Source of the DNA: a virus
Lineage: Duplodnaviria > Heunggongvirae > Uroviricota > Caudoviricetes
Virus record (IMG/VR): IMGVR_UViG_3300014770_000007
Location: 1-39,589 of that record
Strand: one strand, 5' to 3'
DNA length: 39,589 nucleotides
Shown here: piece after piece, positions 16,720 through 17,102 of the stretch
How the letters are laid out: every line of letters starts with the position of its first letter
Position numbering within the stretch: position 1 is the stretch's first letter
The notes under the pieces: model-generated
What the model saw: the letters and a program-made list of their open reading frames with translations, nothing else
Databases searched by the model: none
Told to the model about the DNA's origin: nothing
Position numbers and translations under genes: made by a program

Positions 16720-16974
16720 ATGAAGAAACTGATTCTATGCGCAATGTTAACAACCCTGACAGCCTGTGATAACGCTGCTGATGTTGCCAGTCGTAACGTT
16801 GCAACCGCTGCAGCTAACTTTGAAGTAAATCGTCGTATCGTTTTCTATAACGTTCGTAATGGTGAGTATCGTTTTCTATCGAAGGTCGTTGTGCCCGTGA
16901 GAACACTAGCAAAGAGATCGAAATCACCTGTAAAACTGGTCCGAACGACGTTAAGAAACACTTTATGGGGTTAA
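16720..16974 (+). CDS. putative lipoprotein (possibly frameshifted; coding continues in another frame to 17099)
   Basis: N-terminus MKKLILCAMLTTLTAC = signal peptide + lipobox Cys; downstream frame 0 (16866-17099) is stop-free and protein-like. Confidence 0.5.
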   Translation: MKKLILCAMLTTLTACDNAADVASRNVATAAANFEVNRRIVFYNVRNGEYRFLSKVVVPVRTLAKRSKSPVKLVRTTLRNTLWG

Positions 16975-17102
16975 CCACGGAGGTAACTTATTTCATTGAA
17001 CAAACAGACTCCTCGCCAACAGATCAGTATCGTTATCGTGTTACGTTTAACCCGATGCAAATTCTCCCGGATCTAAACATCCGTCACCTTGGAGAATAAC
17101 CT

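Follow-up and report, generated by a model that had tools for sequence, protein, structure and literature searches.

Functional data for the lipoprotein family treated here come from mycobacteriophage D29, and its members in phages of Gram-negative bacteria are known from sequence. D29 gp64 is a predicted lipoprotein encoded by a patchily distributed gene; deletion of this gene leaves viability, plaque size and lysis kinetics unchanged, over-expression of the protein is cytotoxic, and a Cys-to-Tyr change in the lipobox suppresses the lysis defect of phages in which both LysA2 regulators are missing (10.64898/2026.08.27.747656, preprint). An accessory role of gp64 in the envelope and in lysis was proposed by the authors of that preprint (10.64898/2026.08.27.747656). 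Two further groups of small phage lipoproteins are located in the outer membrane, namely Llp of T5 and Cor of T1, phi80 and N15, which are made in the infected or lysogenic cell and block FhuA, and the Rz1-type o-spanins. Overlapping frames in a -1 relation with a T-rich join are familiar from programmed frameshifts (dnaX, tail chaperone G/GT), and Ripley-type templated quasi-repeat mutations (T4 rII, E. coli) cause a frameshift in turning an imperfect repeat into an exact copy of a donor close by.

The locus analysed here lies in a window of 39,589 nucleotides, the full length of IMG/VR record IMGVR_UViG_3300014770_000007 (Caudoviricetes). Its lipoprotein gene resembles gene 64 of D29 and L5 in the size of the protein, the position of the lipobox, a helix-plus-beta-sheet model and a full-length HMM match, and the distribution of the gene is patchy and dispensable in both phage groups. 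The two differ in that the window copy is frameshifted, in that the host of the window phage is a diderm enterobacterium whereas that of D29 is a mycobacterium, and in their surroundings, the D29 gene lying among early and replication genes whereas the window gene is part of a small opposite-strand cassette between head genes. The features of the locus are as follows (window positions):

16720..16974, plus strand: truncated ORF, 84 codons plus TAA
16720..16767, plus strand: signal peptide MKKLILCAMLTTLTAC, with lipobox LTAC and the codon of the lipidated Cys16 at 16765-16767
16835..16848, plus strand: donor copy of the direct repeat, 14 nt (GTATCGTTTTCTAT), unchanged in four close intact relatives
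16866..16879, plus strand: acceptor copy and site of the lesion, GTATCGTTTTCTAT (14 nt), in relatives GTATCTTTTGTCTAT (15 nt)
16872..16875, plus strand: T4 run within the lesion, of the same length as in intact alleles
16866..17099, plus strand: continuation in the -1 frame, the orphaned C-terminal 75 residues of the lipoprotein
16297..17775, plus strand: cassette of five small genes of unknown function, the content of which differs between relatives

The original prediction described an ORF at 16720..16974 with a lipoprotein signal, the frame of which turns Arg/Lys-rich after about codon 50 while a native-looking second frame is open from 16866 to 17099, and all three elements were recovered in our analysis. 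The 84-aa product starts with MKKLILCAMLTTLTAC and consists of the signal peptide and lipobox (L-T-A-C, residues 13-16, the Cys being followed by Asp at +2 and Asn at +3), 34 native mature residues, and 34 out-of-frame residues; the change follows Tyr50, past which the frame reads RFLSKVVVPVRTLAKRSKSPVKLVRTTLRNTLWG, with abundant Arg and Lys. The -1 frame is closed by a TGA at 16863-16865, open from 16866 and ends at the TAA at 17097-17099, and its translation runs ...SIEGRCARENTSKEIEITCKTGPNDVKKHF...IRHLGE (in an alternative excerpt, ...SIEGRCARENTSKEIEITCKTGPNDVKKHFMGLTTEVTYFIEQTD...IRHLGE). It encodes strands beta2-beta7 and both conserved cysteines, including the motifs IEGxC, TCKTGP, KKHFxGL and VTYFxEQ, and its TAA is the ancestral stop, with the ATG of the next gene 3 nt further on at 17103. 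When the repaired protein was compared with the window by tblastn, residues 1-50 matched frame 1 at 16720-16869 (100%) and residues 52-126 matched frame 3 at 16872-17096 (98.7%). The switch had been placed at the T4 homopolymer 16872-16875, and these segments agree with that position; the implied change in homopolymer length did not hold, the run having four T in both alleles. The same tblastn search of the joined protein revealed no paralogue within the window that could compensate, and the window contains no further lipobox ORF.

The premature stop TAA at 16972-16974 overlaps an ATG of the -1 frame (ATGGGGTTAA, window 16965-16974), which is Met83 of the ancestral protein, and termination-reinitiation at this point could yield a 44-aa cytoplasmic C-terminal fragment (ORF 16965-17099). 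In GenBank the 84-aa product is DAI71440.1, from a TPA metagenome-assembled phage record, and a second annotated fragment is suggested by the skip in numbers between DAI71440 and DAI71442.

The joined frames matched Pfam family PF25682 (Phage_VG64, "beta-sandwich lipoprotein") over its full length, with 154.8 bits at a cut-off of 27 and residues 4-121 aligned to profile positions 9-126 of 127; no other Pfam family reached its cut-off with the joined protein. Even the 84-aa stub has a precomputed PF25682 match. The joined protein also belongs to PHROG 478, shares 45% identity with D29 gp64 over 111 residues (BLASTP, E 1e-34), and its relatives are named "beta-sandwich lipoprotein" by NCBI. Coliphage and mycobacteriophage members share about 45% identity, an unusual degree of conservation. 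Nearly all of the best 120 of 593 homologues are 120-145 aa long, and the window copy, which has no uninterrupted ORF of about 120-130 aa, is a disrupted member of PF25682. By tblastn the family was found in 936 phage records, among them phages of Mycobacterium (349), Bacillus (192), Gordonia (79), Streptococcus (51) and Staphylococcus (47), and it also occurs in Proteus, Vibrio and Erwinia phages. The lipobox Cys is invariant in 54 homologues, and the lipobox is retained in the members from Bacillus phage W.Ph., D29 and Streptococcus thermophilus phage P5641. In an AF2 model of the protein (pLDDT 81.5), seven strands come after a helix at residues 18-33. The frame is lost where strand 2 of the 7 begins, and the stub would therefore be without six strands, C59 and C72 (P0001 numbering), and most of the invariant residues. 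Searching the literature for PF25682, phrog_478, 'beta-sandwich lipoprotein' and the sample accessions turned up no publications.

PHROG 478 carries the label 'site-specific recombination directionality factor RDF', an identity that we rejected, as a factor acting in the cytoplasm would not carry the secretion signal and lipobox seen throughout the family; members of the family also occur in strictly lytic phages. The label is found in RefSeq (NC_) and pharokka records and in a small number of recent GenBank entries (Bas82, for example), and the annotation supplied by other depositors is "hypothetical protein" or "lipoprotein". It is almost certainly a propagated mis-annotation.

The region of the window containing the gene matches 9NA-like siphophages of E. 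coli and Salmonella (genera Nonanavirus and Sashavirus), with nucleotide identities of 95-97% for PDP46, 536P12, AVIO78A and KarinMuster/Bas82 and of 79% for SP069. Where the window has two frames the annotated relatives have a single CDS of 381-384 nt (126/127 aa), and the unannotated 536P12 also translates as an intact protein. The orthologues extend to the equivalent of 17099 and none ends near 16974, which supports the original proposal of an interrupted gene for a lipoprotein of about 125 aa. The intact orthologues are under strong purifying selection, with dN/dS at 0.03-0.06 along the full gene. Since the relatives are intact and constrained to this degree, we conclude that the single ORF is ancestral and functional. 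In its downstream half the window copy differs from the consensus of the relatives by two amino acids (Pro to Ser and Pro to Leu). No relaxed selection was detected downstream of the frameshift, where two window-private substitutions, too few for statistical power, amount to a rate as in the flanks; this lack of a decay signal would fit a recent event but is not proof of one.

In the DNA alignment four close relatives read GAGTATC-TTTTGTCTATCG and the window reads GAGTATCGTTTT--CTATCG, that is, GTATC-TTTTGT-CTAT against GTATCGTTTTCTAT, a net change of -1 (the corresponding span is 702 nt in the relatives and 701 nt in the window). As the T run has four bases both ways (C-TTTT-G in the relatives, G-TTTT-C in the window), a homopolymer indel was rejected. 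The lesion is a complex change consisting of a T-to-G substitution and the loss of a G, or equivalently of a gain of G and a loss of GT. In its mutated form the site at 16866-16879 exactly matches a nearby donor, being a perfect copy of 16835-16848, which starts 31 nt before it; the relatives have no more than a quasi-repeat at these sites. To put this match in proportion, every mutant of the ancestral gene combining one substitution and one single-base deletion at most 5 nt apart was enumerated (n = 11,310), in a test that was designed only once the repeat was known. A perfect direct repeat of at least 14 nt across the lesion was created by one of these mutants, the observed one, and a repeat of at least 12 nt by three. 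Because only 1 of 11,310 comparable double mutations makes such a repeat, a templated mutation is likely, and the enumeration, despite its late design, speaks strongly for one templated event, in which a transient misalignment or strand switch onto the quasi-repeat upstream occurred, and not for two independent hits. Two other sources of the change were considered and rejected. A 31-bp tandem duplication does not apply, as removal of 31 nt leaves the frame broken and the spacing in the relatives is equal, and a third copy of the repeat at 17026-17037, taken as donor, accounts for the G alone and leaves the deletion unexplained. The lesion thus shares with the Ripley-type mutations the conversion of an imperfect repeat into a perfect copy with a frameshift and the confinement of a multi-base complex change to one site. 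It differs from them in that the donor is a direct and not an inverted repeat, and in that templating is deduced from comparative sequence alone, unlike in the model cases.

Further alleles and losses of the gene were found within the phage group. Three phages, 9NA, PJ16 and Sasha, are without it, although 9NA retains its last 44 nt (L013:2501-2545) and PJ16 its last 12 nt (L014:2501-2512); both 9NA and PJ16 have lost the gene and its upstream neighbour or carry other sequence instead, and the break lies at the 3' end of the lipoprotein gene. A second frameshift, from C4 to C5 at the window equivalent of 17008-17011, changes GACCCCTCG to GACCCCCTCG (the window reads GACTCCTCG there) and gives a 111-aa product (P0124) on 23 contigs from several samples. 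Its carriers, which are relatives about 97% identical to the window (L011:13236-13620 and L018-L025, e.g., L018:2001-2336), comprise at least three sublineages differing by 0.1-0.7% and in gene content. A third variant (P0132, in the P0001 cluster; 3 contigs) has a 14-aa in-frame deletion (ATAAANFEVNRRIV) at the window equivalent of 16804-16845, flanked by the quasi-repeat CGTAACGTT / CGTATCGTT with its CGTAWCGTT repeats. This deletion is a second slippage-type lesion in a repeat-rich gene. The absence of the gene from 9NA, PJ16 and Sasha together with the other disrupted alleles indicates that it is dispensable in this phage group. For the three downstream neighbours, the cluster samples that were read contained almost only full-length members.

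It is highly probable that the window carries a genuine natural frameshift allele, a recent pseudogene of an accessory lipoprotein gene of the PF25682/D29-gp64 family. The intact gene would encode a protein of about 126 aa that is exported by Sec and lipidated at Cys16, and the helix-plus-seven-strand beta domain would act on the envelope; for the D29 homologue, loss of the lipid anchor can apparently bypass the lysis regulators. In the window lineage 16866-16879 would have been overwritten from the quasi-repeat 31 nt upstream, most likely by a transient template switch during replication, which would have altered two positions together with a net removal of one base. Ribosomes would then translate 34 junk codons and terminate at 16974, and the product would be a lipidated stub that retains the helix and strand 1, with six of the seven strands gone. 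Judged from the modelled fold and from conservation, the gene is most likely non-functional in the window clone, a loss that the phage would tolerate because the gene is dispensable. For annotation this means that the locus should be entered as one frameshifted PF25682 pseudogene, and not as an independent 84-aa CDS with a tail that goes unannotated. The allele adds evidence from natural populations that a widespread phage lipoprotein is dispensable and repeatedly lost, in agreement with the D29 deletion data, and it provides a clear-cut instance, from nature, of templated quasi-repeat frameshifting. All of this is ordinary biology and leaves current understanding unchanged.

A more far-reaching reading is that 9NA-like phages of natural (gut) populations may inactivate this lipoprotein repeatedly and as an adaptation. 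If it were true, the three independent lesions (templated -1, C4-to-C5 +1 and 42-nt in-frame deletion) and the whole-gene deletions would reflect selection, in some hosts, against a cytotoxic, lysis-modulating envelope protein, and the internal repeats (CGTAWCGTT, GTATCGTT) would be built-in mutational switches. In a weaker variant the T4 or C5 sites may permit low-level restoration of the frame and so titrate the protein dose. We regard the adaptive reading as unlikely.

It is also conceivable that the truncated 84-aa lipoprotein is itself functional, as a lipid-anchored helix with a cationic tail, and that the allele is kept by selection. The signal peptide, the lipobox and the helix at residues 18-33 are indeed intact, the allele is present in five samples, and a second truncating allele persists across sublineages of the relatives. 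The fetched carriers, however, are one 100%-identical clone, so that long persistence is unsupported; the tail is out-of-frame sequence, and the stub is missing almost every invariant residue as well as six of seven strands. A selected function of the stub is very unlikely on this evidence.

The original prediction had left the choice between an indel error and a genuine frameshift in a lipoprotein of about 125 aa. The genuine frameshift is favoured, as the lesion recurs on contigs and is not a length error, and the sequencing indel is disfavoured. The identical 84-aa product was called on 14 contigs. Five loci fetched from five samples (assembled contigs L006-L010, compared with window 13720-19974) were 100.000% identical to the window over 1.1-6.3 kb. 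They stem from JGI 3300029310, from Logan assemblies of SRR1929408 and SRR1929485, and from two ENA assemblies, ERZ27296280 (k119_-named contigs) and ERZ1745275 (NODE_-named contigs); some of these may share one study or be same-run re-assemblies, and their independence is secure only in so far as two or more SRA runs are involved and the contig names point to different assemblers. The recurrence of a single phage clone across data sets could be explained by a shared study, by re-assembly of the same run or by a widespread clone. Because one clone has been repeatedly sequenced and assembled with the same lesion, random sequencing error is an unlikely origin of the frameshift. Scans of metagenome_contigs with a pattern spanning both alleles and of viral_contigs for the exact variant gave 0 matches each.

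An artefact of sequencing or assembly, in which the true genome is intact at 126 aa and the window carries an indel error, would be in keeping with the intact state of all cultured isolates and with the apparent metagenomic derivation of the window (its product being in the TPA record DAI71440.1), and a systematic artefact or a mixed population is formally possible at the assembly level. Against it stands the same sequence in every place from which the locus was fetched, that is, in the two Logan, the JGI, and the k119_- and NODE_-named ENA assemblies. A homopolymer miscount would moreover alter the T run, which here keeps its length beside a substitution and a deletion, and the 14-nt repeat should be shorter than the k-mer sizes implied by the k119/k141 contig names. 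Such an artefact is highly improbable.

With regard to function, the original prediction pointed to small phage lipoproteins as superinfection-exclusion factors that block the phage receptor, and this part was not upheld. That the intact family blocks an outer-membrane receptor in the manner of Llp or Cor would accord with a small phage-encoded lipoprotein in a moron-like cassette and with weak PHROG profile matches to Cor (PHROG 1119, E 0.048) and to an Rz-like protein (PHROG 16495, E 0.04). Both matches, at E of about 0.04, are confined to the signal peptide (residues 1-30 and 1-21, respectively); the family shares the small size and expression from a phage genome with Llp and Cor but has no sequence relationship to them past the signal peptide, and the searches run gave no structural match to either. 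PADLOC returned no match for the lipoprotein or its neighbours, one marginal match excepted. The Nonanavirus relatives recognise the O-antigen via a tailspike (PMC11990801), and the D29 gp64 data indicate envelope and lysis. Family members are moreover abundant in phages of monoderm and mycolate hosts, and the residue at +2 is Asp in 11 of the 12 closest homologues and Glu in the remaining one. In E. coli, Asp at +2 is a Lol-avoidance signal by which a lipoprotein is retained in the inner membrane. The mature protein starts with Cys-Asp-Asn, which predicts a location at the outer face of the cytoplasmic membrane; the intact protein is thus probably kept at the inner membrane, facing the periplasm. 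The outer face of the cytoplasmic membrane is also the one location shared by all host types of the family, whereas Llp and Cor are outer-membrane proteins and the window family also extends to phages whose hosts have no outer membrane. Taken together, Asp at +2 and the family's presence in phages of Gram-positive hosts argue against an outer-membrane receptor blocker or spanin, and there is very little likelihood that the former is correct; exclusion acting at the cytoplasmic membrane is conceivable, though no result obtained here favours it. An identity as Rz1-type o-spanin was rejected, the PHROG match being limited to residues 1-21 and no i-spanin partner being embedded or adjacent. Like these outer-membrane proteins, the window protein is a small lipoprotein, and the D29 data may connect it with lysis, but its family is present in phages of monoderm hosts.

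A leaky or programmed -1 shift, finally, would have tRNA-Phe slip from UUU at 16873-16875 to UUU at 16872-16874 with CUA waiting in the A site, and predicts a low level of full-length lipoprotein, which perhaps tones down a toxic protein. The T4 run permits perfect re-pairing exactly at the frame junction, and low expression could be tolerated or favoured, the D29 homologue being cytotoxic when over-expressed. CUA, the codon in the A site, is rare in E. coli. Such slippage might occur at T4, where CGU_UUU_CUA is the sole site at which a spontaneous -1 P-site slip could rejoin the frames. An X_XXY_YYZ slippery heptamer is absent from the overlap (16866-16974), no stimulatory RNA structure was detected downstream (fold z +0.68 and -0.36 against shuffled sequence, with neither hairpin nor pseudoknot), and the gene contains no Rfam element at E <=1, including frameshift elements. 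The two-frame arrangement is restricted to one clone and does not occur in relatives, 5/5 sequenced relatives and the listed homologues of about 120-145 aa being single ORFs. The slip would moreover produce ...EYRFSIEGR... instead of ...EYLLSIEGR..., replacing Leu-Leu in a core strand by Arg-Phe, and the second Leu (Leu53 in P0001 numbering) is invariant in 54 homologues. With no slippery heptamer, stimulatory RNA structure or conserved shift the frameshift is not programmed, and nothing in the nucleotide sequence would support such a reading; unlike dnaX and G/GT, which the locus resembles in its overlapping frames, -1 relation and T-rich join, it lacks heptamer, stimulator and conservation, and the intact single ORF is ancestral. 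We consider a leaky or programmed shift exceedingly improbable.

The cassette at 16297-17775 is located between head genes on the minus strand, an XkdF-like gene at 15122-15532 and a Mu F-like gene at 17842-18801, and the neighbours of the lipoprotein gene within it match PHROGs of unknown function. The upstream gene (window 16321-16704, 127 aa) is present as a 97-aa version in a Salmonella Rubislaw record and as two overlapping CDSs in AVIO78A (L003:1221-1605), so that a second cassette gene shows disruption in a relative. Outside the cassette, a minus-strand ORF (15529-15906, DUF723-like) contains a perfect 21-nt tandem repeat in 2.4 copies (window 15650-15700) encoding VEPVTTA repeats, the copy number of which appears to be variable, as the orthologues in relatives span 115-125 aa.
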